47,342 nucleotides of DNA from Bdellovibrionales bacterium RIFOXYD12_FULL_39_22 (GCA_001770205.1 MEQL01000057.1:62001-109342); one strand, 5' to 3'. Shown: positions 1,442 to 19,980, counted from the stretch's first letter. Translations and numbers: made by a program. Notes: generated by a model from the sequence alone, not told the origin.

Positions 1442-1493
1442 AACTAAGTGTAGCTAATTAATAAAATTTTGAAAACGAAAGAGTGTGTTCGCA

Positions 1494-3970: not shown

Positions 3971-5322
3971 AAATATTATTGGTAATGCCAAGTGGAAAAA
4001 TACGTTCACTGAAAATCGGAGATTTTGTCATGTCTTTTCGGGAGGCCCCACTTACAATGACTCAACTGGCAGCGCTCACTCCCCCAGAACTGGATGCCAA
4101 TATTTCTATTATCGACGAGAGTGTCCAGAAATTAAATTTTGATAATTTTAATGATGTTGATTTGGTTGGGATTAGTGCACTGACCGGTACATCGTCAAGG
4201 GCCTTTGAGATTGCGGATGAATTTAAACGCCGAGGGAAAATAGTTGTTTTGGGTGGAGTACATGTCACAATTTTTCCCAATGAGGCACAAAAACATGCAG
4301 ATAGTATTGTTGTTGGTTTTGCAGAGACCAGCTGGCCGGAACTGCTTTTTGATTTTAAAAATCATAAATTGAAACCACGCTATCAATCTCCCGCAGAGGA
4401 TAGTATTATCAATCTTCCTCTTGCTCGTAGGGATTTACAGGACAATTCACGATATGCCATGCCTAATACCATTATGGCAACCCGGGGATGCACCAACCAT
4501 TGCGACTTTTGTACAGTTCCCGTTTACATAAAGGGCTATTATAAGCGGCCGATTGAAGATGTTGTTGCAGAGATAAAGACCTTAAGGGGTAAGCGATTTG
4601 CGTTCAATGATGTAAGCCTGGTTGAAGATCCTGTTTGGACCAAACAGCTTTTACGCGCGCTTATTCCCCTCAAAAAGAAGTGGGGAGGACTGTCTACTTT
4701 TATAATCTACAAGGACAAAGAGATGATGTCCCTGTTACAACAGAGTGGATGCCAATACCTGTTAATCGGATTGGAATCGGTCTCCCAAATTGCCCTGCAG
4801 AAAATTGCCAAGGGATTCAATAAGGTTAACAGCTACGCTGAAGGAATGAGGGTATTTCACGATCATGGGATTGCCATACAGGGATGTTTTGTTTTTGGAT
4901 TTGACCATGACACAAAAAGTATTTTCGAAGAAACTGTAGAACAAGTTAATCGTTTAAAAATTGATATCCCACGTTTTTCAATCTACACTCCATATCCGGG
5001 AACCTCACTCTACAATCGGCTGGAGGCAGAAAACAGAATTCTTACTAAAGATTTTAGTCTATATGACACTCAACATGTAGTTTTTCGCCCAAAAATTTTA
5101 CAACCAGAGGAATTATATTCCGGATTCAAATGGGCATATCGGGAGACATTTAAGATATCTTCAATTGCCAGGAGAACTTTTCGCCCGGCCATGTCATTTC
5201 CGATAACATTTGTGGGAAATCTTGCTTATAAGATTTATGTTAAGGAACTATATCGAGAAAACTTATTCGAATCTGCCAACTACTATAGTTCTCTTAGCTC
5301 TACAAGTGGTTATACCTCATGA
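3967..5322 (+). CDS. Cobalamin-binding radical SAM protein (paralog 2)
   Basis: APLTMTQLAALTP, GGVHVT, GFAET, RGCTNHCDFC, FNDVS, GLES, PYPGT; ATGA overlap. Confidence 0.92.
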   Translation: MKILLVMPSGKIRSLKIGDFVMSFREAPLTMTQLAALTPPELDANISIIDESVQKLNFDNFNDVDLVGISALTGTSSRAFEIADEFKRRGKIVVLGGVHVTIFPNEAQKHADSIVVGFAETSWPELLFDFKNHKLKPRYQSPAEDSIINLPLARRDLQDNSRYAMPNTIMATRGCTNHCDFCTVPVYIKGYYKRPIEDVVAEIKTLRGKRFAFNDVSLVEDPVWTKQLLRALIPLKKKWGGLSTFIIYKDKEMMSLLQQSGCQYLLIGLESVSQIALQKIAKGFNKVNSYAEGMRVFHDHGIAIQGCFVFGFDHDTKSIFEETVEQVNRLKIDIPRFSIYTPYPGTSLYNRLEAENRILTKDFSLYDTQHVVFRPKILQPEELYSGFKWAYRETFKISSIARRTFRPAMSFPITFVGNLAYKIYVKELYRENLFESANYYSSLSSTSGYTS

Positions 5323-6656
5323 AAATAACTTTCATAAAACCAAATATGAGTAGCTTTCGCGCCAAGGATGCAATGGAACCGTTGGTGTTTGCCATATTAA
5401 AAGCGCTCACACCAAAAGATATTGAGTGTATTTTTTTTGATGATCGACTTGAAGAGATACCATATGATGATCCCACCGATCTTGTGGCAATCACCGTTGA
5501 AACATTCACGGCCAAAAGAGCATACGAAATTTCCTCAATTTTTCGTAGCAAAAATATTAAAGTTATCATGGGTGGTTTTCACCCAACTTTCATGCCTGAT
5601 GAGGCAATAAAATTTTGTGATAGCATCGTTTGTGGAGATGCTGAAGAGATCTGGCCCAAAATACTTGCTGATTTAAAAAACAACTCGCTATTACCAATAT
5701 ATCGCCAAATTAATTATCCTTCCATTTCCGGGATAATACCTGACCGTTCAATTTTTGCTAAAAAAAAATATATTGGCCTGACCCTTTTACAATTTAACAG
5801 AGGTTGCAGATTTGCCTGCGACTTCTGCTCAATACATGCATTTTATGGAACAACTATAAGACAGCGGCCAATTCCAGATGTTATCTCCGAAATACGAACA
5901 ACCAATAAAAAAATTTTTTTCTTTGTTGATGATAATTTCCTATCCGACGTTGTCAGCGCAAAGAAACTTATGAAGGAACTGATCCCGCTCAAAATAAAGT
6001 GGGCAGGCCAGATAAGCATTGATGTCACAAATGATCCAGAACTGTTGGAGCTAATGAGAAGGAGTGGCTGTTTTGCTTGCATTGTTGGACTTGAAACTCT
6101 TAATTCAAATAATCTAAAGCAAATGAAGAAGGGGTGGAATTTAAAATATGGCCCTTATCCCGAAGCACTTAAAAAATTTTCCTCCTTTGGAATAATGGTA
6201 TTGGGGACTTTCGTCATCGGTTATGATGAGGACGATCAATCAACCATTCACGAAACGATCCGTTTTGCAAAGAAGAACAAACTTTTTTTGGCCCACTTTA
6301 ACCCACTGGCACCAACGCCAGGAACATCCCTATATAAAAGGTTGCAACAGGAGAATAGGTTAATCGAAGATCCATGGTGGTTAAGTGATAATTATTCATA
6401 TGGAGACGCCTTTTTTTGGCCTAAAAAGATGTCCGCACGCGAGTTTAAGAATCAATGTTTTCTTGCACGTCAAAAGTTTAATACCATTTCATCTATTTTA
6501 TTACGGTTATTAAATCCAGCTCACTTCAGATCACTAACGAACGTTTATGTTTATCTTTTGGCCAACATCATCACCAAGATTGAAGTCAAAAAGAAGCAAG
6601 GTGCTTTGTTGGGAGTCAAACAAATAAGGACAATCATTGAAAATAACACTCATTAA
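5319..6656 (+). CDS. Cobalamin-binding radical SAM protein (paralog 3)
   Basis: MEPLVFAILKALTP, GGFHPT, GDAEE, RGCRFACDFC, FVDDN, GLET, PTPGT; ATGA overlap. Confidence 0.92.
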   Translation: MKITFIKPNMSSFRAKDAMEPLVFAILKALTPKDIECIFFDDRLEEIPYDDPTDLVAITVETFTAKRAYEISSIFRSKNIKVIMGGFHPTFMPDEAIKFCDSIVCGDAEEIWPKILADLKNNSLLPIYRQINYPSISGIIPDRSIFAKKKYIGLTLLQFNRGCRFACDFCSIHAFYGTTIRQRPIPDVISEIRTTNKKIFFFVDDNFLSDVVSAKKLMKELIPLKIKWAGQISIDVTNDPELLELMRRSGCFACIVGLETLNSNNLKQMKKGWNLKYGPYPEALKKFSSFGIMVLGTFVIGYDEDDQSTIHETIRFAKKNKLFLAHFNPLAPTPGTSLYKRLQQENRLIEDPWWLSDNYSYGDAFFWPKKMSAREFKNQCFLARQKFNTISSILLRLLNPAHFRSLTNVYVYLLANIITKIEVKKKQGALLGVKQIRTIIENNTH

Positions 6657-7971
6657 ACCCAATATTGGAAGAATGGAGCACTCCCTCTACGTTGATGAGG
6701 GCCGAATGGAACCGTTACAACTGGGAGTTATCGCGGCCCTCACCCCTCCAGAATTTGATGTGGTTCTTTTTGATGATCGGATGGAAGAAATTCCCTATGA
6801 CGAAAAAACTGATTTGGTTGCCATAACAGTTGAAACATTTACCGCCCGAAGGGCCTATGAGATAGCCAAAGAATTTAGAGCACGGGGTACTCCAGTAATA
6901 ATGGGGGGATTTCATCCTACCCTCATACCAGAGGAAGTTAAAAATTATTGCGACTCAATTATGGTTGGAGATGCCGAAGGGCTCTGGAACGAAGTATGTT
7001 CAGATCTTAAGAATTATAAAAAAATTAAACCTATCTATAAATCCTGGCCTGGAATTGGTCAACCGTTGGGAGTTTTGCCTCGCAGAGACTTGTTCAAAAA
7101 TAAGGGGTATCTCCCCATTACACTACTCCAGTACGGGAGGGGATGTGAATTTGCCTGTAACTTTTGTGCAATAAGCGCTTTTTTTAATCAAAAAAATTTT
7201 CGGCGCCCTCTAGAAGAAGTGGTTAATGAGATTAAAACACAAGGCCGAAAAATTTTATTTTTTGTTGATGATAACATCGTTGCTCACAAACCATCTGCCA
7301 AGGAACTTTTCAAAGCAATTACTCCGCTAAAGCGCCGCTGGGTTTCTCAAGGATCATTGGATATGTTAGATGACCCCGAGCTAATGGATCTTATGAAAAA
7401 AAGCGGTCTACTTGGAAATGTAATTGGCTTCGAGTCGATCAATCCGCAGGCACTTAAGGAGATGAAAAAATCTCCCAACATTGGAAACTTTGATGGTTAT
7501 CAAACACAAATCACCAAACTTGAAAATCTTGGGTTGCAAACTTGGGCGGCATTTACATTGGGGCATGATTGGGAACAGATCGAAGATATTTATAAGACAT
7601 ATGATTTTGCAATTAGAGCAAAATTCACCTTCGCCGCCTATAATATTTTGATGCCATATCCAGGAACTCCTCTATACAAGCGACTTGAGGAAGAAAAAAG
7701 GCTTCTCTATGATGGTAAGTGGTGGCTTCATCCTGAATACCGCTTTAACTATGCTGCCTTCCGACCACAAAATATGACGGCCGATCAACTAACTGAACAT
7801 GTTTTTGAAATACGAAAAAGATGGAATAGCTTTGGCGCAATATTCAAAAGATTTCTCGCTCCAAAAACCAATATGAGATCATTGGAGCGAGCAATTATTT
7901 ATTGGAGCTATAACCCGCTTTTTCGAAAGGAGACCTTTAAAAAGCAGGGGATGCACTTTGGACAAAAGTGA
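6637..7971 (+). CDS. Cobalamin-binding radical SAM protein (paralog 4)
   Basis: TTG start preceded by TAAGGA; MEPLQLGVIAALTP, GGFHPT, GDAEG, RGCEFACNFC, FVDDN, GFES, PYPGT; overlaps paralog 3 by 20 bp. Confidence 0.92.
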   Translation: MKITLIKPNIGRMEHSLYVDEGRMEPLQLGVIAALTPPEFDVVLFDDRMEEIPYDEKTDLVAITVETFTARRAYEIAKEFRARGTPVIMGGFHPTLIPEEVKNYCDSIMVGDAEGLWNEVCSDLKNYKKIKPIYKSWPGIGQPLGVLPRRDLFKNKGYLPITLLQYGRGCEFACNFCAISAFFNQKNFRRPLEEVVNEIKTQGRKILFFVDDNIVAHKPSAKELFKAITPLKRRWVSQGSLDMLDDPELMDLMKKSGLLGNVIGFESINPQALKEMKKSPNIGNFDGYQTQITKLENLGLQTWAAFTLGHDWEQIEDIYKTYDFAIRAKFTFAAYNILMPYPGTPLYKRLEEEKRLLYDGKWWLHPEYRFNYAAFRPQNMTADQLTEHVFEIRKRWNSFGAIFKRFLAPKTNMRSLERAIIYWSYNPLFRKETFKKQGMHFGQK

Positions 7972-8348: not shown

Positions 8349-9475
8349 TATTACGGAGAGCGTGACATAGTTTGCATTTCTATGCTGCATAACGGACATT
8401 TTTATTGCAAAAATAACTCATCACAACCTTGGGTTGTTTTTGCCTCTTCCGCAGATATCCAGTTAAATTTTTCTTTAATCCTGTTTTGTTGGCCGCTCTT
8501 TTTTTTCTAATTGCATTTGTTTTCACATCTTGATTGAGTAATTCGTCTGGATTTAACTCTGGACTGTAGGCCGGCAATAAGAACATTTCAATTTTTTTCA
8601 CATTGTTAGCAAGCCAGTGATCAACTTTTTTTGACTTGTGAACAGGATGTCCGTCAAGAATTAAAAATATTTTTCTTTTTACCGTTCGCAACAGGCGTTT
8701 TAAGAATTTTAACAAAACATCGGCACTGAACTTCCCATCGAAAACCATAAATCGCAAAGAGCCTCGATTGGTGACGGTAGATATCATATTACACGAAAAA
8801 CGAATGCCGGCCACCCTCACAACTGGGGTCTGGCCAATTTTGCCATACGCTCTTCCAGCTTGATCATCAGACCGTACTCCCATTTCATCGCCCCAATGTA
8901 TTTCTGCTCTTTCTTTTGTGGCCCTCCGAGAAATTTTTGGATATTCTGTTTCAAGCCAATGTTTCACTCTCTCTGGCTGCTGTTCATAGGCCCGTTTCAC
9001 TGGTTTTTGCGGAGACATTCCCAACTTCTTTAATAGGCGTCCAACTGTCCACCTCGACAATTTAATGCCAAAACGCTTTTCAATCAAATCAGCAACAGAT
9101 TCACGAGTCCACAGCATAAATGGAAACATTAGCTGATCAGGAGTTTTTGCTTTAATGGTTCGCACGATACTGGCACATTGCCACCCCAGTAAGCCGCTGT
9201 TGGAATCAACGGATTTTGGCCTTCGCGATTTTTTTTCAATGGCAGGAAATCCACCTTGCTTATAGGCAGCCCACCATTTACCAACTGCCTGACGAGTGAC
9301 TTCAAATGTTTTGGCAGCTTCAACTTGAGTTGCGCCATTAATGATGGCACGAACAGCTTTTTGTCGAATAGTTGCTTGAGTGGCCTGATCTTGTGAACGC
9401 GCATCCTTTTTTTTCATCAAAGTAAAATAGCACACCCGAATCAAAAAAGCAAACTATGTATTGCTCTGATTAATA
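8349..9475 (-). mobile_element. IS630-family insertion sequence, apparently intact
   Basis: Imperfect terminal inverted repeats TATTACGGAGAGCGTGACATAGTTTGC (8349-8375) and the reverse complement of 9449-9475 (TATTAATCAGAGCAATACATAGTTTGC), 21/27 identical, bounded by TA at both ends as expected for IS630. One uninterrupted transposase inside. Confidence 0.92.
8380..9417 (-). CDS. IS630-family transposase
   Basis: N-terminal HTH, LWTRESV, and DDE motifs WGDEMG, ILDGHPVH, LPAYSPELNPDE. ATG at 9417 (MKKKDARS) preferred over the TTG at 9444. Confidence 0.95.
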   Translation of the reverse strand: MKKKDARSQDQATQATIRQKAVRAIINGATQVEAAKTFEVTRQAVGKWWAAYKQGGFPAIEKKSRRPKSVDSNSGLLGWQCASIVRTIKAKTPDQLMFPFMLWTRESVADLIEKRFGIKLSRWTVGRLLKKLGMSPQKPVKRAYEQQPERVKHWLETEYPKISRRATKERAEIHWGDEMGVRSDDQAGRAYGKIGQTPVVRVAGIRFSCNMISTVTNRGSLRFMVFDGKFSADVLLKFLKRLLRTVKRKIFLILDGHPVHKSKKVDHWLANNVKKIEMFLLPAYSPELNPDELLNQDVKTNAIRKKRAANKTGLKKNLTGYLRKRQKQPKVVMSYFCNKNVRYAA

Positions 9476-9538
9476 TTATCTGACATGTAATATTTGCTAT
9501 GATTTGTAAGGATGATTTTTTCAAAAATACGTCAGCGC

Positions 9539-9567
9539 TTGACAATTATAACCTATTGGGTTATATT
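9539..9567 (+). promoter_or_regulatory. Sigma70 promoter of the TA operon with an overlapping palindromic operator
   Basis: TTGACA (9539-9544), 17-bp spacer, TATATT (9562-9567). A perfect inverted repeat TATAACC-N5-GGTTATA (9547-9565) covers the spacer and -10, as expected for antitoxin autorepression. Confidence 0.8.
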
Positions 9568-9572
9568 AAGCC

Positions 9573-9854
9573 ACGGTCAACATCGTTGAAATTTCTAAGA
9601 AAGCAGAAAAAGATATCATAAAGCTTCCGTCTTACATCCAACAGAAGCTACGGTTGTGGGTCAATGATGTTGAGAAATTAGGACTTAGTGAGGTTCAAAA
9701 AATACCTGACTTTCATGATGAACCTCTTAAAGGCCATAGAAAAAATCAGCGCTCAATTAGATTAAATAACGCATATAGGGCGATCTACACAATAAGAGAC
9801 GATGGTGTTGTGGAATTTGTGTATGTCGAGGAGGTAAATAAACATGACTACTAA
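9573..9854 (+). CDS. HigB/RelE-superfamily mRNA interferase toxin (ACG at the apparent start; possibly inactivated)
   Basis: Frame open from ACG at 9573, with TAA at 9567 upstream: (T)VNIVEISKKAEKDIIKLPSYIQQKLRLW...FHDEPLKGHRKNQRSIRLNNAYRAIY, a full-length 93-aa RelE/HigB-type protein. Lies upstream of an HTH antitoxin. Confidence 0.82.
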   Translation, partial: TVNIVEISKKAEKDIIKLPSYIQQKLRLWVNDVEKLGLSEVQKIPDFHDEPLKGHRKNQRSIRLNNAYRAIYTIRDDGVVEFVYVEEVNKHDY

Positions 9855-10158
9855 TAAAAAAAGCGATGCTATGAAATTTCTGGATAAGACGATTGGCCCT
9901 CCGATGACGTTCGGGAGCACCATTGAATCCATCCGCCTGTCGGATTCCATATCGCAAGTTACCTTTGCCAAAAAACTTGGTATCTCTCAGGCCCATCTTT
10001 CTCAAATTGAAAAAGGTGTTAAGTCGGTCAGTCCGGAGCGGGCCAAAAAATTTGCTAAAATTTTAGGCTACTCTGAAGTTACGTTTGTGGAACTTGCTCT
10101 ACAAGATCAGTTCAAAAGATCTGGTATTAAAATGAAAATACACCTTGAAGCGGCCTAA
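9844..10158 (+). CDS. HigA-like antitoxin, XRE-family HTH
   Basis: [23 protein letters not shown] helix-turn-helix; GAGGAGG RBS; overlaps the toxin stop (toxin-first order). Confidence 0.88.
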
Positions 10159-10239
10159 TATTTCTACCCTTGCTACGCCGCCATCTGACAGCACGCGGTT
10201 AGAAAGTCGTCGATCTGGGAGCAGCGATATTCCGGCCGA

Positions 10240-10720
10240 GACATCGTTGTGCTTGATTCACGCACGCAGAAATTTTGTTAATTTGGTTGACCGCAAGATA
10301 CCAGAGCGTACTCTTACTTACGAAGAGAAAAAGTGTTATCAAGTTATCGCTATCGTTGCTAGAGTGTATAAATTTGAAGCTGAAGTAAGGGCAAACAAGC
10401 TTAATGATCAAGATAGGATGATATATCATCAAAAGCGCAGCGGGCCACTGCTGCGGGCCATGTTGCGTTGGTGTCAGTCGATATTTGCCACCAGAAAAGT
10501 TGGGCCAAACTCTAATCTTGGGAAAGCGGTTTCTTATTTTATCGAGCATAATGTTGGATTATTCAAGTTTTTAAGTGTGCCTGGCGCATTTGTTGATAAT
10601 ACCCACACGGAAAGAGTCATTAAGTCGGTTGCACAACATCGAAAAGCATCACTATTTTTTAGAAACGAATTAGGTGCTTTGATTGGAGACATAATTCTGA
10701 GTGGCCAAAAGAAAAATTAG
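10240..10720 (+). pseudogene. IS66-family transposase (TnpC) internal fragment
   Basis: [19 protein letters not shown] and [22 protein letters not shown] match the IS66 CWAHARRKF, LGKAxxY and DNNxxERxIR...RKNxLF motifs. No N-terminus or accessory genes. Left boundary approximate. Confidence 0.8.
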
Positions 10721-10749
10721 TCAGCAAAAAGGCTCCTATTTGCTGACTA
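10706..10749 (-). terminator. Intrinsic terminator of the 10760-12199 gene
   Basis: Perfect 11-bp stem TAGTCAGCAAA (10718-10728) / TTTGCTGACTA (10739-10749), followed on the minus strand by ATTTTTCTTTT; 10 bp from the stop codon. Confidence 0.7.
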
Positions 10750-10759
10750 CTCAGTTATT

Positions 10760-12199
10760 TTACCAGTTGATTACCGCACCAGCAAAGCCGATATTCTCGT
10801 AAATCACATTTCCACTCTGCTGAGTATCCTCACGATAAATTGCTTCAAGATTGAGAGAGCATTTTCCGTAAGTGGTAAAGATATCAGTGCCAAAAACCTT
10901 ATTGAAAAAGTCAGCCATCCCATCATCAAATTGAGTATATGAGATTCCTGCGATCGCTTCTACTCTTGACTCTAATTCTTCCCCGTTACTTTTTACAAGA
11001 TTATTTGCGTATGTCGATCCAGCATGTAGTGCAATTGAAGGATATTTTTTTAACTTATGCACTAAAATCAAAGAGGCGCTGTTTTGCGATGAGCTATTTT
11101 CACCAAATGCATAGTCAATAAATAGTTCGTTCCGTGGCGAAAGTCTTAATACAACTCCTGCCCCAGCAGTTGTATTATCAAAGTTACGCTTTTTTCCAAA
11201 TGACACGTAGACATCATAATTGTCTCGCTTTTGGAAAAGAAGTCGAATCAACATTGAGTCAAGTTTTTCTATATCCGCATGTCGATCAAAATCTTCATCA
11301 GAAAAATTTGCAACTCGTTCAATATAATCCGAGGCATTATAGAAAACTTCTCTGTCATGGAAAAAAGTAGCATCTACTCTAAAAGTCGATGTCCTGTTTA
11401 CTGATTCTGCATATCCCACGGTAACTCCTGTTGTCGCAGCAGCTCCTCCGGCCAATTGAGTTTGTGATCTTGTTGGACGATAGTAATCTAATTCTGAAAG
11501 GCCTGAATCATCCTGGGCCGGCCCATTTTCTACCACGTATTTTCCGGCCTTGAAATATACGATTGCTTTATCATCATTTTTCTCACCAGTAATTTTTCCT
11601 CGAACTTTACCAATAACACCTTCAATTACTTTACCAAAAACTACTGCAATTTCCTGATAAGCTGTTTCATCTTTAATTTCATCAACCCTATCATCAAGTT
11701 TGTTTTTTTGTGCCTCGATAACAGTATTCATACTCTTAATCGTGTCGCTGATTAGTTTAGCACGCATGCTCTCTTGCATTTGTGTTGGCATCATTGGGAA
11801 ATATAGATTACCCGCCAAGGCGGCATTAACACCTTTTTCAACTTTTGCTTGTACTTTTTCATCAACCGCGTCATGTAAATCTTCTTTAACTTTATCTTCA
11901 AGTAAAAATGGCGCCATTGAAAATTTTAAACTCAACTCTGCGACAAATAGAATGTTTTCAGTATAGAGGGCAGGAAGTCCGGCATCCTTTAAAATTCTAG
12001 TAAGTCTCATTTTTGTAAACGGAGTCATATAGGACATTGAAATATTTGACTGGTTGATCTCTGGTTTTCCAGACTCGTCGATAAATGACTTAAAACGCAG
12101 GTTGATATCAAATTCTCCGGCCATTGTTTTTATTTTCATCTCAGCAAATACCGTGGTTGATATAAAGATTGTTAACATTGTGACTAACAGATAACGCAT
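10760..12199 (-). CDS. Secreted, probable outer-membrane beta-barrel protein with a helical insertion
   Basis: GGAGG RBS before ATG at 12199; signal peptide MRYLLVTMLTIFISTTVFA; alternating beta-strand pattern in the C-terminal half; ends in aromatic residue (FAGAVINW). Confidence 0.6.
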   Translation of the reverse strand: MRYLLVTMLTIFISTTVFAEMKIKTMAGEFDINLRFKSFIDESGKPEINQSNISMSYMTPFTKMRLTRILKDAGLPALYTENILFVAELSLKFSMAPFLLEDKVKEDLHDAVDEKVQAKVEKGVNAALAGNLYFPMMPTQMQESMRAKLISDTIKSMNTVIEAQKNKLDDRVDEIKDETAYQEIAVVFGKVIEGVIGKVRGKITGEKNDDKAIVYFKAGKYVVENGPAQDDSGLSELDYYRPTRSQTQLAGGAAATTGVTVGYAESVNRTSTFRVDATFFHDREVFYNASDYIERVANFSDEDFDRHADIEKLDSMLIRLLFQKRDNYDVYVSFGKKRNFDNTTAGAGVVLRLSPRNELFIDYAFGENSSSQNSASLILVHKLKKYPSIALHAGSTYANNLVKSNGEELESRVEAIAGISYTQFDDGMADFFNKVFGTDIFTTYGKCSLNLEAIYREDTQQSGNVIYENIGFAGAVINW

Positions 12200-12389
12200 A
12201 TTTCCTCCTATAATTTTACTCATACTCAAAAGATAGCACCGGCCATAATTGGGGGGAAAAGAAGTATAAGATCCATGGCAAATTTACAGAAACTGTTTAA
12301 ACTTTAGACGATCTATTTCTTATCCGTTATAGTTTTTTGGATTTTGATTTTTATGAAAAAAATAATACTTGCAATTAATCCCCCCCCCC

Positions 12390-12420
12390 NNNNNNNNNNN
12401 NNNNNNNNNNNNNNNNNNNN
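12390..12420. other. Assembly/scaffold gap (31 N) preceded by a poly-C run
   Basis: Ns visible in the sequence. Confidence 1.
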
Positions 12421-12592
12421 ATATAGAAGTTATGATATCGCCATATAGTTATTTTTTTAAATTCATGTTGATACTAGCGCAAGTTTTTGGCACGCACCTT
12501 CTTGATTAAAATCGAATAACTTTTAAACAGCAAGCTTTGTAAATAATAGAGGGATATTATGCTTTTCTCCTATTCCGTGCGATACTAAGTGT

Positions 12593-13651
12593 ATGAGACC
12601 ATCAGTAATTATATCCAAATTAGTTTTTTTCTCTTTGATTATTTCTTTTTGTCTCGATTGCAAATTGTTGGGTCAAGAAAGAAGTTCGGCAAATAACGAT
12701 TATGTTGCGATCGATAATCATGTGCATTACATGAGTCCCGAAAATTGGCAAGCCTTGGACTCGGAAGATCTTTTAGAGCACCGACCGATCAATACCGAAG
12801 TTGTCTTTGAACATATGCAAAATACCCCCATCAAACGAGTGGTGGCATTAAGTTCGGGATATCGATTTAATAACTCAAAAGAAAAGATGATGCATGAGAA
12901 TAATTTCGTTGCTAATGAGGCCAACCGTTATCCTGGAAAAGTCATTCCCTTCTGTGGAGTGCCGATGAGGCCAGATTGGGCGCTTGGAGAAATAGTTAGG
13001 TGTATGAAAGATCTAAATATGGAGGGTCTTAAAATTCATCCAACGGCCAGTGGAGTTTATGGAGAGGACTTTGATAAGAAAAATACTATAGTACTCTTTG
13101 ATGATATTTATGCGTTAATAAATTCATTGCAAATAAAGTTAAAAAGGCCCATCCCTATTTTGGTTGATACTAATTGGTGGCCTCCTGGGGAAAAAAGTTA
13201 TGAGAAAATGTTTGCCTTTGTAAAAAAATATCCAGAAGTTCCTACCATCTGGGCCCATGCGCTTAGCTTTGATTGGGAAGATGGCCTCACAAAATTGGCC
13301 ACAGAAATAAAAGAATTCCCTCAGCTTTATAAGAACTTATTAATAGATCTTAGTGCTATTCCGGTAATGCTTTTTAATAAAGATATTGTTCTCACTGATG
13401 CGATTACTGCACCAGCAATTAACCCAGAAAAATTTGTAATGTTGCTTCGCAAGGTAGGAATAGAAAAATTTGTTTTTGGATCTGATTTTCCCTTTATTTC
13501 GGCACAAGAGACCCTTGATGTTCTAGAACAATATCCATTCACGCAGAAGGAATTATCTCAAATTATTAATAATAACTATTACCGCATAAAAACCCCAAGT
13601 GTTTTAAGAAGTGGGTGCTTAAATGCCGCAAGTAGATTGTTGAAAGGATAG
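12593..13651 (+). CDS. Amidohydrolase-family metallohydrolase, probably exported
   Basis: IDNHVH, GLKIHP, WAH and FGSDFPF motifs; hydrophobic N-terminus. Confidence 0.85.
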   Translation: MRPSVIISKLVFFSLIISFCLDCKLLGQERSSANNDYVAIDNHVHYMSPENWQALDSEDLLEHRPINTEVVFEHMQNTPIKRVVALSSGYRFNNSKEKMMHENNFVANEANRYPGKVIPFCGVPMRPDWALGEIVRCMKDLNMEGLKIHPTASGVYGEDFDKKNTIVLFDDIYALINSLQIKLKRPIPILVDTNWWPPGEKSYEKMFAFVKKYPEVPTIWAHALSFDWEDGLTKLATEIKEFPQLYKNLLIDLSAIPVMLFNKDIVLTDAITAPAINPEKFVMLLRKVGIEKFVFGSDFPFISAQETLDVLEQYPFTQKELSQIINNNYYRIKTPSVLRSGCLNAASRLLKG

Positions 13652-13758
13652 GAAGATTAAACATTAGTATCTAGTCTGCATAAATCAGATAGTATGGCGC
13701 AAAAACTCAATCAGTAAAGGTAGATTTACCATCGACTAATCAGTGAAAATATTGTTCA

Positions 13759-14388
13759 CTATGGCCAAATCGTCGATACTCGAAACATATTGTCTATGCC
13801 CAGTTTACCCAACGTTGAAGAAAAAAATTCAAATACTTTATTGGGGAAGTTGGTATCGGGCCCAACCCAATCTGCTCGCACATAAAAAAAACAACGATCT
13901 TTATGTGCGCTAGCATTAATCTCTCCCTTTAAATCTTTCAAAAAACCTTTATCAAAAACAAAATTATATTTGCCAGGTTCGGTGATCCGCTCAATTTTAA
14001 AATCTAAAATCATGTTGAAAGGAAGGATGGGACTAGAAAGCAAAAGATTAATCCGCTCGCTCTTTTCGTCATAAGTAGATTCTTTAACAAAACTCAAATA
14101 ATCTTTCTGTTTTTCATACAACGACATTTTGCGCAAGGCAAAGGTACAACTTTTTTTATGCAGGCCCGCGGCATGAAATTTCAGTGTCTGAATTTTTTTC
14201 TTATCCTTTTCTAAATTAGTAACTATCGACTCAACAAAAGTTTTATCTTCTAAAATTTCACTCTTGGTTATTTCGTTTAAAGGCGCCTCTTCGAAGGTGA
14301 CTGCACCACCATTATTGTTGGCCGCCGCAATAATTTTTACCTCAATAACAGAGAGAATCAGTATGACAATAAGGTATTTTACGCTCAT
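13759..14388 (-). CDS. Secreted hypothetical protein (possibly START/SRPBCC-like fold)
   Basis: Signal-like N-terminus; the helix, beta-sheet and C-terminal helix pattern is only loosely reminiscent of SRPBCC. Confidence 0.55.
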   Translation of the reverse strand: MSVKYLIVILILSVIEVKIIAAANNNGGAVTFEEAPLNEITKSEILEDKTFVESIVTNLEKDKKKIQTLKFHAAGLHKKSCTFALRKMSLYEKQKDYLSFVKESTYDEKSERINLLLSSPILPFNMILDFKIERITEPGKYNFVFDKGFLKDLKGEINASAHKDRCFFYVRADWVGPDTNFPNKVFEFFSSTLGKLGIDNMFRVSTIWP

Positions 14389-14554
14389 ATTTATGACTCA
14401 CTGTGCATTTTCTTGTTTCAAATCACTATTTTTTTTTACTATCATAAAGAATACAAAAGAGCGGATCCAATTTATACTAAAAAATTTTGGTAAGATGATG
14501 TTTTATGTTTTTATTTTAATTTTAATTTTTAATTTATTGCAGAGGACAAAATAG

Positions 14555-16507
14555 ATGACAGAAATAGTTTCAGTAAAGAGAAAGGGAAAAGCACATGATG
14601 CCGTCATTGAACATAAAGATCAGCGATGGCATTGTCGCCATCGCATTACTCTCGTATTTGGAAGCAATGATGTTGAAGATTTAGAAACCTACCTTTATCG
14701 TGATAATAAAGTAGAATTTACTACCGTCAAATTTCACCAGGCAAAATCCAAGGCCATTGAAGAAATTTTAGATAATTGCATCGATGAGTTTTACCGCGGA
14801 CATGTGACTGAAATTCACACCACTCTATCGGAAGATAAAAAAACAGTGGCAGTAGAAGATAATGGCATAGGCTTTCCGCTTAAGATGATTGCTCCTGTTT
14901 ATACGGAATTTAGAACCGGCTCTAAATTTAAAGATGAAGAAGTGGATGAAGATGGGTTTATGCATCGAACATTAGGCCAAAACGGCCTAGGTGCAGCGGC
15001 CACCTGCCTCACCTCCGATCTTTTTCAAGTGCGCGTTAGACACTATAATTCTAAGCAAGAACAAACCTACACTTTCGAAGATGGAGCACTAACCACCAAA
15101 AAGAGTAAGCCCAAAACATTTACTGGACACTCCGGCGTACGCGTTGAGTTAATGTTGGCGCGAGAGGTCTACAAAAATGTAGTTATAGATGAGGATCTAT
15201 TGCGCAAGCGAATCATCGATCTGGCCTACAACAATCCCGGACTAACTTTCTACTTTAATAAGGAAAAATATCTTTTTAAAAAGGGCCTTTTTGAACTGGC
15301 CCAATACATTGGTGGGGAAACAGCATACCATATAGGTGATACTACGGCCGTTTTTGATTCCACCACAGCAAAGGGTAAAACGGCAAAAGGAAAGATCGAC
15401 TTAAGTATTTCAGTAGTTATTGATAAGGCCAGCGAAGCGCGTGAGCGAGTAATCTCTTTTGCCAACTCCAGTCCAACTTTTGATGGCGGCTTCCATCAAG
15501 ATAAAGTCAAAAGACTCTTTATCAATATCCTCAAAGAAAAATTAGAACGCTCTATAAAGAAAGAAAAAATCTCTATCACCGATAATGATATTTTAACCGG
15601 CATGACTTTTATTATTGGGGTCACGATGCCCAACCCTCGCTTTGAATCACAGACTAAAAGAAAATTAGTACGCGATGCCCAGCTGGAAAAAGTTATAGAT
15701 GGATTCATGTCCGACAACATGGAAAAGTTTATTCGCAAAAACAAAGAATATCTAGATGTAGTGCTTGATCGAGCACGATCTCGCCATCGCTTTCAAGAAT
15801 TTAAAGATGCTGAAAAAATATCAAAAAAACAAAAGCGAAAACGCATAGAAAAATTACTAGACGCTAACGAAAGACGTGATCGCACCAAATGTACCTTATT
15901 TATTTGCGAAGGAGATTCGGCCATTGGCGGATTGCGGTCAGCACGCAACAAGTTATATCAGGGAGGAATTGCACTCAAGGGAAAACCCATGAATGTGGCG
16001 CAAGCATCCATCAACGATATTTTAAACAATCAAGAGTTCTCTGATATTATGGCGGCCATCGGCCTAACACTGGGACAACCAGTAGATTTTGAAAACTTGC
16101 GTTTTTCCCAAATAGTATATCTTTCCGACTCAGATGTGGATGGTGGACATATCAACACACTTCTTACTAATTTTTTCTTCACCTTCTGGCCTGAACTTTT
16201 TGAGCGCGGCATGATTCAATTGGCCAAGGCCCCGCTGTTTGAGGTGGCAACTGACAGTGGAAAAATCTATGTCGAATCTCCTGCCGAGTTAGAAAATTTA
16301 AAAAAGAGTGGAGCAAAAATAAAAGAAATTCAACGTAACAAAGGTTTGGGAGAGATGTCTCCCGAGGCCTTTAAACATGTGCTAATGAAGGGTGTTTATA
16401 CCAAGATTGCAGTGCCCGATAGACAACGAGCAAAAGAGATGTTGGATGTCTGCTTTGGCAAAGACACCGCACCTCGCAAAGATCTATTAATTGATAAAGC
16501 AGAATAA
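14555..16507 (+). CDS. Type IIA DNA topoisomerase, ATPase/TOPRIM (B) subunit, atypical
   Basis: GHKL motifs EEILDNCIDE, EDNGIG, GQNGLG; NPRFESQTK; TOPRIM motifs CEGDSA, LKGK, DSDVDGGHI, KGLGEM. Confidence 0.93.
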   Translation: MTEIVSVKRKGKAHDAVIEHKDQRWHCRHRITLVFGSNDVEDLETYLYRDNKVEFTTVKFHQAKSKAIEEILDNCIDEFYRGHVTEIHTTLSEDKKTVAVEDNGIGFPLKMIAPVYTEFRTGSKFKDEEVDEDGFMHRTLGQNGLGAAATCLTSDLFQVRVRHYNSKQEQTYTFEDGALTTKKSKPKTFTGHSGVRVELMLAREVYKNVVIDEDLLRKRIIDLAYNNPGLTFYFNKEKYLFKKGLFELAQYIGGETAYHIGDTTAVFDSTTAKGKTAKGKIDLSISVVIDKASEARERVISFANSSPTFDGGFHQDKVKRLFINILKEKLERSIKKEKISITDNDILTGMTFIIGVTMPNPRFESQTKRKLVRDAQLEKVIDGFMSDNMEKFIRKNKEYLDVVLDRARSRHRFQEFKDAEKISKKQKRKRIEKLLDANERRDRTKCTLFICEGDSAIGGLRSARNKLYQGGIALKGKPMNVAQASINDILNNQEFSDIMAAIGLTLGQPVDFENLRFSQIVYLSDSDVDGGHINTLLTNFFFTFWPELFERGMIQLAKAPLFEVATDSGKIYVESPAELENLKKSGAKIKEIQRNKGLGEMSPEAFKHVLMKGVYTKIAVPDRQRAKEMLDVCFGKDTAPRKDLLIDKAE

Positions 16508-16547
16508 GATAGAGTAAGGCAAAATAAATTTACGGCGGAGAATATAA

Positions 16548-18026
16548 ATGGCAATGGATGATTTAATTTTTAACTCTTTGGAATCAATTCCTCTCGATGA
16601 TGTAGTCATTGAAGAATATAAACTTTATCAGCTTTATACGCTGATGGATCGGGCCATCCCCTACTTGCAAGATGGCCTAAAACCTGGCCAGCGCCGCATT
16701 TTGTACACTCTGTGGAAAAATCAGGGTAAGGGCCTACTAAAAGTTTCTTCCGCTACCGGATTAGTTTTAACGCTGCATCCCCATGGCCCGGCCTCAGTAG
16801 AATCGGCCATTGTTAATCTGGCGCAAGATTACACCTTTGCCAATAACTATCCTCTCATTGACAAAAAAGGATATTTTGGAGAACGAATGGAGCCAACCCC
16901 GGCGGCCGGGCGATACATTGAGTGTAAGTTAGGAAAAATGGCCGAGATCTTACTGTTTGATGATATTAATCAAGTAGAGATGGTACCCAATTACGATGAA
17001 AAAACGGTGGAACCCCTCTGCTTTCTTCCCAAATTACCGTTGATGCTTCTAAATGGGGCAGAGGGAATTGGCACAGGTTTTTCCTCTGTAATTCCAAGTT
17101 TCCACCATGAAGATATCATTGATTCAATGATTAACATGGCCGAGAATGGAAAACCAAAAAAACTAAAACCCTTCTTCTTAAACTATAACGCCAGGCCAGA
17201 AATTGATTCTTCTGGAAAATTAACCTTTGAGATGAAATTTGAGTTAATCGGTGATGATGTTTTTATCACCGAAATTCCTCGCAACTATGACTCCTCAAGA
17301 GTCTATAAACATCTAGGTAAATTTATCGATAGCGGTTATCTGAAAGATTATATCGACTCCTCCGTGGACAATGAAATTAAAATTGAATTAATTTTTAAAC
17401 GAGGGGCGCGGCCACCGCTGGAAGAAATCATTAAAACCATGGGGTGTAATACTTCGCTTGTGCCCAACTATACTCTAATTTCTGAGCGTGGCGTGCGAAT
17501 TTTTAATAATGCCGAAGAAATTATTGTCTGGTTTACTGCTAAGCGTTTAGAGGTGGTAAAGCGACGCTATGAACTTCTGTGTACAGAGTATGAGCAAAAA
17601 ATTCGCCAGAGTAATGAGATTATTCGTTTTATCAAGCAAAAACACTATGTCGAAGCAACCAAGGTTAAAAACAGAAAAACATTCATTGAATATTTGGAAA
17701 AAAACAAGTTTACTTTTTCGGAATATCTGGCCGATATGCCCATCTACCGCATGACCAAAGACGAGGTAGAAAAACGGGTGCTAATGGTAAAAGAGGATTC
17801 AGAATTGCTCAAGCAGTTTGAAAAAATCGCCAAGTCGAAAAACTTAGTCCAAAAGAAGTTAATAGAAGAATTGGATGACGTTAAAAAACAAATTAATGAT
17901 TGGCTTAAGCAAAAAGAGATTCAGCGGGCCAAATTGCAAAAGGAGCTAGCAAAAAAAGATAAAGAGATTTTGAAAAAGAAAAAAGAAAAAGAAAAAGAAA
18001 AAGAAAAAGAAAAAGAGCTGCAGTAG
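16548..18026 (+). CDS. Type IIA DNA topoisomerase, cleavage (A) subunit lacking the beta-pinwheel CTD
   Basis: RAIP..DGLKPGQRR, HPHG, catalytic AAGRY, LLNGAEGIGTGF, ITEIP; only 492 aa, ending in a K/E-rich tail. Confidence 0.93.
   Translation: MAMDDLIFNSLESIPLDDVVIEEYKLYQLYTLMDRAIPYLQDGLKPGQRRILYTLWKNQGKGLLKVSSATGLVLTLHPHGPASVESAIVNLAQDYTFANNYPLIDKKGYFGERMEPTPAAGRYIECKLGKMAEILLFDDINQVEMVPNYDEKTVEPLCFLPKLPLMLLNGAEGIGTGFSSVIPSFHHEDIIDSMINMAENGKPKKLKPFFLNYNARPEIDSSGKLTFEMKFELIGDDVFITEIPRNYDSSRVYKHLGKFIDSGYLKDYIDSSVDNEIKIELIFKRGARPPLEEIIKTMGCNTSLVPNYTLISERGVRIFNNAEEIIVWFTAKRLEVVKRRYELLCTEYEQKIRQSNEIIRFIKQKHYVEATKVKNRKTFIEYLEKNKFTFSEYLADMPIYRMTKDEVEKRVLMVKEDSELLKQFEKIAKSKNLVQKKLIEELDDVKKQINDWLKQKEIQRAKLQKELAKKDKEILKKKKEKEKEKEKEKELQ
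17985..18014 (+). repeat. (GAAAAA)5 in-frame hexanucleotide tandem repeat encoding EK repeats
   Basis: Five perfect copies at the 3' end of the topoisomerase A-subunit gene. Confidence 0.9.
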
Positions 18027-18157
18027 ATTCTGACAATTTTTGTCGGCCAGGAGCTGCATAAACTATTTCAACTTTTTTAATAGAAAACAGAAAATATATC
18101 TGCTAACCTATCAAGTAGTTATCGTTTTTAAATGATGGTTTTCATGGAGGAAGATTT

Positions 18158-18586
18158 ATGAGTTTAACTAAAGCGGACATTGTAGAACGCGTCTTCAAAG
18201 AGGCAAATTTTTCAAAGAAAGAGGCCGCTGAAGTAGTCGAGTTAGTTTTTAAAGTTATCAAGGATACTCTCTCTCAAGGAGAAAAAGTTAAAATTTCTGG
18301 CTTCGGAAATTTTACCATTCGAGACAAGGCAACTCGCATTGGACGCAATCCTCAGACTGGTGAGTCTATGGAAATTTCCGCCAGGCGAGTATTGACCTTC
18401 CGTCCATCACAAGTGCTAAAAGAAGACATAACCTTGCGCTATGCCCATCGTTTGGATAATGAAGGTAATGAGAATACCGCTCTACCTCCAAAGGAAGTAG
18501 TTGCTCGTGCACTAAATTCTTTCATGTCTAATGAAGATACTCCAGATGGTGAGGATGATGATTTTGAGGACAACCACGAAAATTAG
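18158..18586 (+). CDS. ihfA: Integration host factor subunit alpha with a C-terminal extension
   Basis: MSLTKADIVE, VKISGFGNF, GRNPQTGE, ISARRVLTFRPS; followed by a MerR gene, the usual ihfA context. Confidence 0.88.
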   Translation: MSLTKADIVERVFKEANFSKKEAAEVVELVFKVIKDTLSQGEKVKISGFGNFTIRDKATRIGRNPQTGESMEISARRVLTFRPSQVLKEDITLRYAHRLDNEGNENTALPPKEVVARALNSFMSNEDTPDGEDDDFEDNHEN

Positions 18587-18594
18587 GAAGCTAG

Positions 18595-19029
18595 ATGAAT
18601 TGTCCTTTAGATATGCTGACACAAAAAAATCAATTCAAATTTGATGAAGTTTGTACGCGTACAGATGTACGGCCTTACGTATTGCGTTTTTGGGAGTCGG
18701 AATTTGAAGAGATTGCCCCAACCTTTATTAATGGATCAGAAAAAATCTACTCACTTGCAGACATCAATGTGATTCTGGCCATTAAAGAGCTGCTCTTTGA
18801 AAAAAAATTCAGCATTAATCGGGCCAAAGTAGAACTTTCTCGATCACTTGTTAAACAAGCAACTGCCCCGGCCGATGACTTATCACTACCCCCAAAAGAA
18901 GAAAAAACAGTTGAACAAACCTCGCTACCGGCCCTAGAAAATGGAGAAAAGCTTTTACATACCAAGGCCCAGTTAGAAAAAATGTTAGCGCTGATGGATT
19001 CCATCAAAGAGGCCCATAATTGGAACTAA
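18595..19029 (+). CDS. MerR-family transcriptional regulator
   Basis: EVC...VRPYVLRFWESEF...IKELLFEKKFSI; usual position downstream of ihfA. Confidence 0.82.
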   Translation: MNCPLDMLTQKNQFKFDEVCTRTDVRPYVLRFWESEFEEIAPTFINGSEKIYSLADINVILAIKELLFEKKFSINRAKVELSRSLVKQATAPADDLSLPPKEEKTVEQTSLPALENGEKLLHTKAQLEKMLALMDSIKEAHNWN

Positions 19030-19980
19030 TGCTTCTTTTTTTGGCAGATGTCTTTCGATATTTACACTTCCCTCATTCAAGATTTTTTTGATTTTGCTTA
19101 AATAATCATCAAGCACCAGAGAAAACGTCGGCATGCCATTATAAGTAGATGTGATTTTTTTAATTATCTGCATATAGTGCAAAAGTGTTTGTAGAGCTTC
19201 ATCGGAATGACGCAACCATGGATTAATCTTTTGCTCACGCTCGGTTATTTTTAATTCCGCAAGTTCTGTTAAGTCATCTAACAATTGAAACGATACTCCC
19301 ATCGCATCACCTAGTTTATATAAATCCCGGCACTCTCGATATTTTTGCTTCCGATCATCTTTTTTCTCATCCAAAGTTAACAAGTAACTTCCAACTATGG
19401 CCGTTTGAATTAGCCGAGCAGTTTTTAGACGATGAGTAGTAATTAGATTAACAAAAGAGTGGTTCATCTCCTCTGATAGATCTAGTACTTGCCCCAAAAT
19501 TAATCCTTTGGGCCCTAATGCCCAAGAGAAAAATTTTAAAACATCTGGAAAGGCCGGCGATTTTATTTGAGACAATAAAGCAAAAGGGCCAACACACAAC
19601 CCATCTCCCACCAAAAGCGCTTTCCATTCATTATATTTTTTATGAACAGTGAGTTTGCCTCGACGATAATCATCATTGTCCATGGCCGGCAAATCGTCAT
19701 GAATCAGCGTATAAGCATGATGCATTTCCACCGCACTGGCCAGATAACTAAAATCTGATTGGGGCCCAATAATATTGCCTTGCCATCCACTTCTTTTAAA
19801 ATCACGGCCAATAGCATAAACTAGAAGCGGCCGAAAAAGTTTACCTGTAGGAAAAAGAGCATACTCATAAATTTCACTTATTGCATGATGAGGCAAAATT
19901 TGGCCCAGGTGCCTCTTTAAATTCACTGATAATTCACTAGTAATCTCCTTTAAATCTATCATCTCTTTTCCTCTTTTCAT
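18985..19980 (-). CDS. ispA: Polyprenyl (farnesyl/geranylgeranyl) diphosphate synthase
   Basis: GKLFRP, LIHDDLPAMDNDDYRRGK, GQVLD, KTA, FQLLDD. The start may be the ATG at 19962. Confidence 0.85.
   Translation of the reverse strand: MKRGKEMIDLKEITSELSVNLKRHLGQILPHHAISEIYEYALFPTGKLFRPLLVYAIGRDFKRSGWQGNIIGPQSDFSYLASAVEMHHAYTLIHDDLPAMDNDDYRRGKLTVHKKYNEWKALLVGDGLCVGPFALLSQIKSPAFPDVLKFFSWALGPKGLILGQVLDLSEEMNHSFVNLITTHRLKTARLIQTAIVGSYLLTLDEKKDDRKQKYRECRDLYKLGDAMGVSFQLLDDLTELAELKITEREQKINPWLRHSDEALQTLLHYMQIIKKITSTYNGMPTFSLVLDDYLSKIKKILNEGSVNIERHLPKKEALVPIMGLFDGIHQR

Follow-up and report, generated by a model that had tools for sequence, protein, structure and literature searches.

Bacteria typically employ two type IIA topoisomerases, gyrase and topoisomerase IV (topo IV), and the binding of A to B subunits is a textbook property of this superfamily. 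To our knowledge, TopoNM of Mycobacterium smegmatis has stood as the lone oddity beside these two enzymes. TopoNM is suspected to be viral, and is reported to branch between Bacteria and the T4 phages and to be absent even from related mycobacteria (PMC2647321, PMC8084294). The topoisomerase II (topo II) of phage T4 is, in one of these accounts, a relaxing and decatenating type IIA enzyme (PMC8084294), while Bdellovibrio bacteriovorus, as described in PMC11302465, has topo VI, rationalised there as the decatenase, and is without topo IV. Here we analysed a 47,342-nucleotide stretch from Bdellovibrionales bacterium RIFOXYD12_FULL_39_22 (MEQL01000057.1:62001-109342; this whole stretch is the window referred to below), which carries adjacent genes for the B and A subunits of a topoisomerase. 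The source organism is a member of the Bacteriovoracaceae, whose members are predatory bacteria (the family, below), and the pair forms a separate deep type IIA lineage that is neither gyrase nor a named topo IV, nor an enzyme of the T4 or eukaryotic type. We consider it probable that this lineage is a phage-derived, vertically inherited A2B2 type IIA enzyme that serves as the second type II topoisomerase of the Bacteriovoracaceae. No published description of a second type IIA enzyme of the family was found in open-access papers and bioRxiv. The available text of PMC12642874 discusses gyrA only and that of PMC11789641 mentions only the gyrase operon, while in the available text of PMC9752973 the bacteria sampled comprise gyrase and E. 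coli topo IV only, with no Bacteriovorax, Bdellovibrio or Leptospira.

Both open reading frames (ORFs) are intact, and since no terminator-like site was found on the + strand between them we read the B and A genes as one operon with the following elements (lengths in amino acids, aa):

14555-16507, + strand: B subunit gene, 650 aa, with GHKL ATPase, transducer, Toprim and C-terminal GyrB tail domain
14753-15058, + strand: GHKL ATPase domain of B, residues 67-168 (Pfam PF02518)
15374-15802, + strand: transducer domain of B, residues 274-416 (Pfam PF00204)
15893-16198, + strand: Toprim domain of B, residues 447-548 (Pfam PF01751)
16325-16483, + strand: GyrB C-terminal tail domain of B, residues 591-643 (Pfam PF00986)
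16508-16547, + strand: intergenic spacer between B and A, 40 nt, with a GGAG ribosome-binding site 9 nt 5' of the A start
16548-18026, + strand: A subunit gene, 492 aa, with a winged-helix, tower and coiled-coil breakage-reunion core
17865-18023, + strand: Lys-rich charged C-terminal tail of A, residues 440-492, predicted to form a single long helix

By its Pfam domains, motifs and Foldseek comparisons the pair belongs to the type IIA topoisomerase superfamily. All four domains of B reach their Pfam cut-offs, PF00986 exactly at 29.8. We aligned the subunits with E. coli GyrB/ParE and GyrA/ParC, T4 gp39/gp52, phage proteins and fused eukaryote-type proteins, which located the B motifs WHCRHRITLVFGS at residue 25, GQNGLG at 141, NPRFESQTK at 360 and RNKGLGEM at 594. 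Residues E70..N74, D102, GQNGLG 141-146 and QTK 366-368, together with the Toprim motifs EGDSA 452-456 and DSDVDG 525-530, align with E. coli GyrB and ParE, so that the E..N and DNG motifs of the ATPase, the QTK loop and the Toprim EGDSA/DSDVDG of B are intact. Among the aligned rows, the GQNG form of the ATP-lid motif is common only to the family and a short-subunit class of phage enzymes. The N-terminal strap of B, which the initial annotation had called degenerate, is instead a family-conserved variant, WHCR[HN]R[IV]TLVFGS, alignable as the counterpart of the phage and eukaryotic H.R.R...Y[IL]G.

The sole Pfam match of A is PF00521 (DNA_topoisoIV; residues 35-443, 16650-17876, 289 bits). 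Its AAGRYIE at residue 119 aligns with AAMRYTE of E. coli GyrA and ParC, and the catalytic R122-Y123, likewise intact, is encoded at 16911-16916; further motifs are NNYPLIDKKGYFG at residue 99, GIGTGFSS at 173 and YLADMPIYRMTKDE at 393. No beta-pinwheel C-terminal domain (CTD) or GyrA box was found, with no PF03989 match in A at E 0.01 or better. The AlphaFold2 model of A (predicted local distance difference test 87.3, predicted template modelling (TM) score 0.82) shows the winged-helix, tower and coiled-coil core and closes with a single long helix over residues 431-491, leaving no room for a beta-pinwheel. The motifs quoted for both subunits in the initial annotation, the 492-aa length of A and its missing pinwheel are thus all present as claimed by alignment, Pfam and AlphaFold2. 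Foldseek matched the model to human, trypanosome, S. aureus, S. pneumoniae and T4/T6 cores at TMq 0.73-0.79, a comparison that cannot separate the classes because all type IIA cores match about equally. Each of the 21 aligned orthologues ends in a tail of 31-53 residues whose net charge lies between +2 and +14, its composition being conserved and its sequence not; being Lys-rich, it may give non-specific DNA contacts. Where E. coli GyrA has HPHGDSAVYD, A reads HPHGPASVES, a region that we take to correspond to the quinolone-binding Ser and acidic pair, which suggests an unusual drug profile for the A subunit.

Profile searches placed the pair well below every named family. The best NCBIfam score of B was 312 against a cut-off of 740 (PRK05644, GyrB subfamily), with 297.8 against 882.4 for gyrB TIGR01059 and 219.4 against 723 and 235.8 against 900 for the parE models. 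On eight NCBIfam gyrA/parC models A scored 172, 166, 149, 142, 140, 130, 122 and 112, with cut-offs of 598-902; these include 139.5 against 877 for gyrA TIGR01063, aligned over residues 14-201 only, and 129.9 against 628.9 and 121.9 against 813 for the Gram-negative and Gram-positive ParC models. The pair therefore falls short of the equivalog level of gyrase and of topo IV alike, while the gyrase of the same genome passes (GyrA 1192 against 902, GyrB 981 against 882). These scores bear on the possibility that the pair is an extremely divergent but ordinary topo IV, derived from cellular ParC/ParE stock with loss of the CTD and fast evolution at the base of the family, and perhaps akin to the Planctomycetes-Verrucomicrobia-Chlamydiae (PVC) and Bacteroidetes types (PRK09631/PRK12758) or to the CTD-less chlamydial type. 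We regard this origin as unlikely: A scored 166 against 644 on PRK09631, 112.2 against 598 on PRK09630 and 142.2 against 780 on PRK12758, and true PRK09631 members reach 811-820 bits on their model. The best profiles overall were phrog_543 for B (474.5 bits, E 9.5e-142) and phrog_551 for A (366.5 bits, E 5.9e-109), both matched nearly end to end, although a PHROG match is not proof of clade membership since PHROGs are broad remote-homology clusters. Among solved structures A matched yeast Top2 best (135 bits, residues 10-417), then a T-even phage medium subunit (gp52 homologue, 8ylu_A; 115) and ParC (114), and GyrA structures aligned with A over residues 1-200 only. The order for B speaks in favour of a cellular topo IV origin, with GyrB at 184, ParE at 176, T-even phage B (8ylu_C) at 154 and human Top2 at 121 bits.

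Subsequently, the position of the pair was determined in trees and topology tests. Named ParC and GyrA rows were obtained by scanning genome contigs with a ParC-shared pattern, which kept 80 loci, 2 of them from Bacteriovoracaceae, classified by NCBIfam. In the B+A tree (45 rows, 1077 columns) the family formed its own clade with support 100, and it was absent from the clade of long-A phages, gyrase and E. coli topo IV (100), from that of T4 and the fused eukaryote/nucleocytoplasmic large DNA virus (NCLDV) type (99; the T4-eukaryote grouping had 97 in a 37-row tree), from the fused eukaryote/NCLDV clade itself (100) and from the short-subunit phages (100). Hence a specific T4- or eukaryote-like affinity, as had been proposed for the pair, did not hold, the family lying outside the T4 and eukaryote/NCLDV clade and outside the short-subunit phage clade. 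The 37-row B+A tree, which included PVC-type pairs, again set the family outside the cellular clade with support 100. A 63-row tree of A subunits covered Gram-negative, Gram-positive, clostridial, PRK05561, PRK09631 (PVC-type), PRK12758 (Bacteroidetes-type) and Bdellovibrionota ParC-like proteins; its 25 cellular rows and 4 long-A phage rows formed one clade with support 100, without the family. In the B-only tree a 100-supported split set the family on the viral and eukaryotic side, where it stood beside the short-subunit phages with weak support (48). The approximately unbiased (AU) test on B+A rejected a grouping of the family with E. coli topo IV (delta lnL 165.6, p 3.65e-7) and with PVC-type pairs (delta lnL 58.3, p 0.0029). 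The expectation that the pair would not branch within ordinary ParC/ParE was borne out by these trees, with the caveat of one AU test on A alone that is given below. Moreover, the family evolves at the rate of its GyrA, so that any fast evolution of an ancestral topo IV would be limited to the stem, and the sister lineages in the phylum are mostly without ParC.

The relatives of the pair in sequence databases are few. Named relatives of A come from Bacteriovorax stolpii, several Bacteriovorax sp. and metagenome-assembled genomes of Bacteriovoracaceae and Bdellovibrionales, the best match having 86% identity. Among 1.84 billion cluster representatives, those closest to A were the cluster of the family itself (64% identity) and 11 fragments exceeding 50%; past that cluster, full-length relatives had at most 36% identity and were A subunits of about 430-470 aa or fused topo II proteins of about 1050-1400 aa, with no GyrA or ParC of about 800 aa among the best 150 matches. 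The nearest relative outside the family, a 462-aa protein (P0130; 34% identity, 258 bits) on a 3.77-Mb contig of Leptospira santarosai, is a cluster of one that the trees pair with a 569-aa metagenomic protein (support 97); other nearest representatives are a sea-urchin Top2A and two proteins labelled 'DNA topoisomerase-2'. In IMG/VR, relatives with 25-34% identity occur at 59 loci, the contigs being as long as 350 kb. These loci fall into a short-A class (37 of the 59; A of 439-542 aa), in which 31 loci have an upstream B gene of 627-666 aa on the same strand, and a long-A class (22 loci; A of 670-749 aa). Against the phage class phmmer gave 209-279 bits for B and 145-208 bits for A. In GenBank phages all 2245 records matching A and all 2283 matching B were below 60% identity, the best at about 30%. 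As a separate observation, two proteins in which B and A are fused (P0144 and P0155; about 1075-1087 aa) nest within the short-subunit phage clade (loci L060-L118), a fusion that would be independent of the one in eukaryotes and NCLDV.

The pair is long established and vertically inherited in the Bacteriovoracaceae. When genomes with a completeness of at least 90% were sampled across the phylum, an orthologue and one GyrA were present in 46 of 46 family genomes, and an orthologue in none of 154 other Bdellovibrionota; a second GyrA-family match occurred in 13 of these 154, none above 115 bits, and two had no match at all. Searching 24 other genera of the family with A recovered an orthologue in 21 (60-70% identity), and in a 22nd (G022) the A gene is cut by the contig end and the B gene lies on the same contig, which leaves G002 (75% complete) and G021 (98% complete) without a match. 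The order of a divergent 209-aa gene, B and A is kept in 19 of 20 family loci. In the exception, G203, the A gene (C2:398075-399478) and the B gene (C2:2346802-2348736) are intact and about 1.95 Mb apart on the same contig, and in the congeneric G156 they are adjacent. Across 14 genomes the pairwise distances of B+A follow those of GyrA (Mantel r 0.93, p 1e-4), with mean p-distances of 0.303 and 0.291 and the main clades shared by both trees. The composition of the gene pair is host-like, with a GC content of 0.406 and 0.387 against 0.392 for the genome and codon-usage distances that rank at percentiles 58 and 70 among long ORFs. As claimed for its host GGCC signature, the B gene has exactly 16 GGCC, 3 GGTC and 0 GACC, and the A gene has 14, 0 and 1. 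Genome-wide, GGCC occurs 31190 times where 5842 are expected from base composition (about 5.3-fold) and 17146 from a second-order model, and GGTC and GACC are depleted to about 0.4-fold; the pair shares both the excess and the deficit. A restriction-modification footprint or a repeat are possible causes of the GGCC excess. This descent bears out the long domestication proposed in the initial annotation. It also makes it very improbable that the pair is a prophage component or a recently transferred mobile pair with no housekeeping role, a view to which the PHROG phage topo II families as best profiles and the genome of the family that is missing the pair would lend themselves; apart from synteny, distances and composition, it is opposed by the identities of at most 34% in IMG/VR and by GenBank phage records none of which reaches 60%.

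The topoisomerase complement of the host was examined in the source assembly (3.95 Mb, 62 contigs, 94.6% complete), for which absence means 'not found'. This genome has exactly two PF00521 and two PF00204 matches, namely the window pair and an adjacent gyrB-gyrA on contig C61, and two type IA enzymes; no parCE and no topo VI A subunit were found in it. The content that the initial annotation proposed to check for (gyrAB present, parCE and topo VI absent) agrees with the search, in which gyrAB lay above the cut-offs. In the phylum-wide sample no family genome (0 of 46) had a match to topo VI A (PF04406), and 139 of the 154 Bdellovibrionota outside the family had one; it is near-universal in most families of the phylum (for example 24/24, 27/28 and 19/19). 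Of the families without it, f3 (0/3) and f16 (0/2) include members with an additional A subunit that is ParC-like and 760-773 aa long, and f5 (0/1) and f7 (0/6) have apparently gyrase only. Bdellovibrionota lineages thus tend to have gyrase and one other type II enzyme, which in the Bacteriovoracaceae is this pair. The earlier idea that it replaces topo IV stands insofar as no parCE was found, yet the alternative in this phylum is mostly topo VI and not topo IV. Judged by this distribution, the pair is likely to be the relaxing and decatenating enzyme of the Bacteriovoracaceae. As it has no C-terminal wrapping domain, it would not be expected to introduce negative supercoils, and relaxation and decatenation are predicted, in line with the function assigned to the gyrase CTD (PMC2647321).

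An inherited and active enzyme could also have a specialised task, for instance while predatory cells grow as filaments and undergo multiple fission, in histone chromatin, or in defence or plasmid exclusion. The apparent reliance of G021 and family f7 on gyrase alone would suit such a task, as would the histones reported for Bacteriovorax (PMC11789641) and the precedent of TopoNM, for which a link to defence has been speculated (PMC8084294). We nevertheless find a specialised task rather improbable. A general role accords with the way in which the pair, topo VI and topo IV complement one another across the phylum, and Bdellovibrio, which also has a predatory cycle and histones, uses topo VI. 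Moreover, PADLOC had no match for either subunit, and the reading as a defence system was rejected; among the neighbours it returned only a weak AbiEi-like match of the MerR protein (E 2.9e-4).

Several results weigh against a phage-derived lineage with an indispensable role. All trees are 'quick' IQ-TREE searches under LG+C20+F+G4 with posterior mean site frequencies and carry Shimodaira-Hasegawa-like approximate likelihood ratio support only. They are without true chlamydial PRK09630 ParC, for which PRK09631 members with 465-485 bits on the PRK09630 model are the nearest stand-ins, and without TopoNM. The branch joining the four major clades is weak (support 42 with 45 rows, length 0.008 with 37 rows). 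A subunits alone tell a different story from B, since a 78-row tree sets the family beside the cellular clade (93, unstarred), the 63-row tree yields a trichotomy of the family, the Leptospira pair and the cellular clade, and the AU test did not reject a grouping with PVC-type and Bacteroidetes-type ParC (delta lnL 30.5, p 0.058). HPHG and QR.KGLGEM in the pair are bacterial-like, and in phmmer the range that B reaches with B subunits of the Firmicutes type (200-246 bits) overlaps with its range for the phage class. These tree positions, motifs and the presumed role, which is that of topo IV, are also what a divergent topo IV would show, and against them stand the B+A tests, the 100-supported cellular clade that excludes the family and the B-only tree. 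As the A trees put it between the phages and the cellular GyrA/ParC stem, the clade could also be a surviving relative of the gyrase/topo IV ancestor. All viral contigs in IMG/VR are at most 34% identical to the pair, so none of them can be named as its donor. The virus-related origin proposed initially remains the likeliest reading, though a best viral contig at 34% identity falls short of establishing it. Finally, both subunits and topo VI are missing from G021, an assembly of 30 contigs that is 98% complete and has one GyrA-family gene; with the six apparently gyrase-only genomes of f7 (6/6) it implies that gyrase alone can suffice in this phylum and that the enzyme may be dispensable.

Under the phage-derived reading that we favour, the two genes would encode an ATP-dependent A2B2 type IIA topoisomerase with every catalytic element for double-strand passage. 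We infer from these elements that the enzyme would relax positive and negative supercoils and decatenate and unknot DNA, like T4 topo II and eukaryotic Top2. The pair would have entered the ancestor of the Bacteriovoracaceae, most probably from a large tailed phage, and have been inherited vertically since then under a gyrase-like constraint, taking the place occupied by topo VI across most of the remaining Bdellovibrionota and, in a few of them, by topo IV. That this was an independent cellular capture of a viral type IIA topoisomerase, turned into a vertically inherited housekeeping decatenase, is a more tentative proposal, to which we give somewhat less than an even chance. If true, it would give bacteria a counterpart to the viral ancestry that has been proposed for eukaryotic Top2 and for bacterial gyrase.

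The surroundings of the operon are chromosomal and contain the following features:

13759-14388, - strand: divergent gene of unknown family, 209 aa, with a signal-peptide-like N-terminus; conserved left neighbour of the topoisomerase operon
14389-14554, no strand: AT-rich region between the divergent genes; the B start codon is preceded at 8-13 nt by an AGAGGA ribosome-binding site
18158-18586, + strand: HU/IHF-like DNA-bending protein, 142 aa (PF00216, 108 bits); frequent right neighbour
18595-19029: MerR gene, neighbour of the operon
18985-19980, - strand: polyprenyl synthase gene, neighbour of the operon

The 209-aa protein, which had no match in Pfam, PADLOC or PHROG, is the neighbour of B at 19 of the 20 family loci (29-56% identity). 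We claim no promoter, since promoter-like matches in 13600-18700 were as frequent in shuffled sequence (12 found, 13.2 expected). The neighbours named initially as ihfA-MerR-ispA were found as HU/IHF-like, MerR and polyprenyl synthase genes. The HU/IHF-like protein ends in an acidic C-terminal extension of about 50 residues, and 12 of the 20 family loci have such a gene within 2 kb on the downstream side of A; this recurrence could be quoted for a specialised role, and we treat the gene as genomic context and at most a candidate component. Downstream there is an operon for purine biosynthesis, and the window further contains genes for chemotaxis, ABC transporters and radical-SAM proteins. The last include, at 1485-7971 on the + strand, one radical-SAM gene and then four tandem paralogues of about 445 aa with overlapping ends, each with a B12-binding and a radical-SAM domain.

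The sole signs of mobile elements near the operon are 4-6 kb upstream of it: an IS630-type DDE transposase (8380-9444, - strand) and, in 9844-10720 on the + strand, a small helix-turn-helix gene with a truncated IS66-family transposase, the IS66 fragment being 10145-10720. These transposase genes might point to a mobile pair. Against this, PHROGs found no phage structural, lysis or integrase genes among nine neighbouring ORFs in 8380-19980, where matches were limited to transposase and regulator types, and no tRNA gene was found in the window. The prophage reading was rejected on these grounds, and the claim that there are no phage genes nearby holds, qualified by the IS630-type transposase and the IS66 fragment.

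Our data indicate that a whole family carries a third, CTD-less class of type IIA topoisomerase that is as conserved as gyrase. Within one phylum there appear to be four solutions to decatenation (topo VI, topo IV, the family enzyme and gyrase alone), so that the replacement of an essential DNA-topology enzyme becomes directly comparable among close relatives. In addition, the clade adds a cellular branch to the poorly resolved zone between phage and bacterial type IIA enzymes, a zone relevant to the suggested viral ancestry of cellular topoisomerases (PMC9752973).

Compared with known systems, the pair is closest in architecture and motifs to the short-subunit phage topo II enzymes (of large uncultured tailed phages, for example IMG/VR loci L064, L101 and L073; A of 439-491 aa, B of 627-666 aa). 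Both have an unsplit B with an N-terminal H.R.R, followed on the same strand by a short CTD-less A, share the motifs GQNG, NN.PL and Y[IL]A.[ML]P.YR[MF]T, and give phmmer scores among the highest outside the family. Unlike the pair, which is chromosomal and vertically inherited, these phage enzymes, at 25-34% identity, form a separate 100-supported clade, have, in the aligned rows, EG[LN]SA and KGLGSM in B where the family has EGDSA and KGLGEM, and, judged by length, are without the Lys-rich tail of A. The T4/T6 topo II (gp39, gp60 and gp52; PDB 8ylu, 8yo3) likewise has a CTD-less A, of 442 aa, and matches phrog_543/phrog_551 as the pair does, with Foldseek target-normalised TM scores of 0.85 and 0.82. 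Its large subunit is split into gp39 and gp60, whereas the family B is one 650-aa chain; it has YHHGE in place of HPHG, and it groups with the eukaryote/NCLDV enzymes (99), with the family outside. Eukaryotic and NCLDV Top2 are fused B-A polypeptides, in contrast to two genes 40 nt apart.

Bacterial topo IV, including the PVC (NF007209) and Bacteroidetes (NF009397) types, is likewise a two-subunit A2B2 enzyme beside gyrase, with the same presumed role in decatenation and relaxation and with HPHG and QR.KGLGEM in common; the pair differs in lying below the NCBIfam cut-offs and outside the cellular clade and in having no beta-pinwheel CTD. Topo VI of Bdellovibrio and most Bdellovibrionota occupies the same slot beside gyrase in the absence of topo IV, and in our sample the two distributions are mutually exclusive; since topo VI is a type IIB enzyme with an unrelated DNA-cleaving subunit, this likeness is functional only. 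TopoNM of M. smegmatis, compared by description only, is the closest cellular precedent: it too is a type IIA enzyme of two subunits that is encoded by a cell and stands far from both gyrase and topo IV. While TopoNM is reported to be absent from related bacteria, the pair described here is fixed family-wide in the Bacteriovoracaceae.

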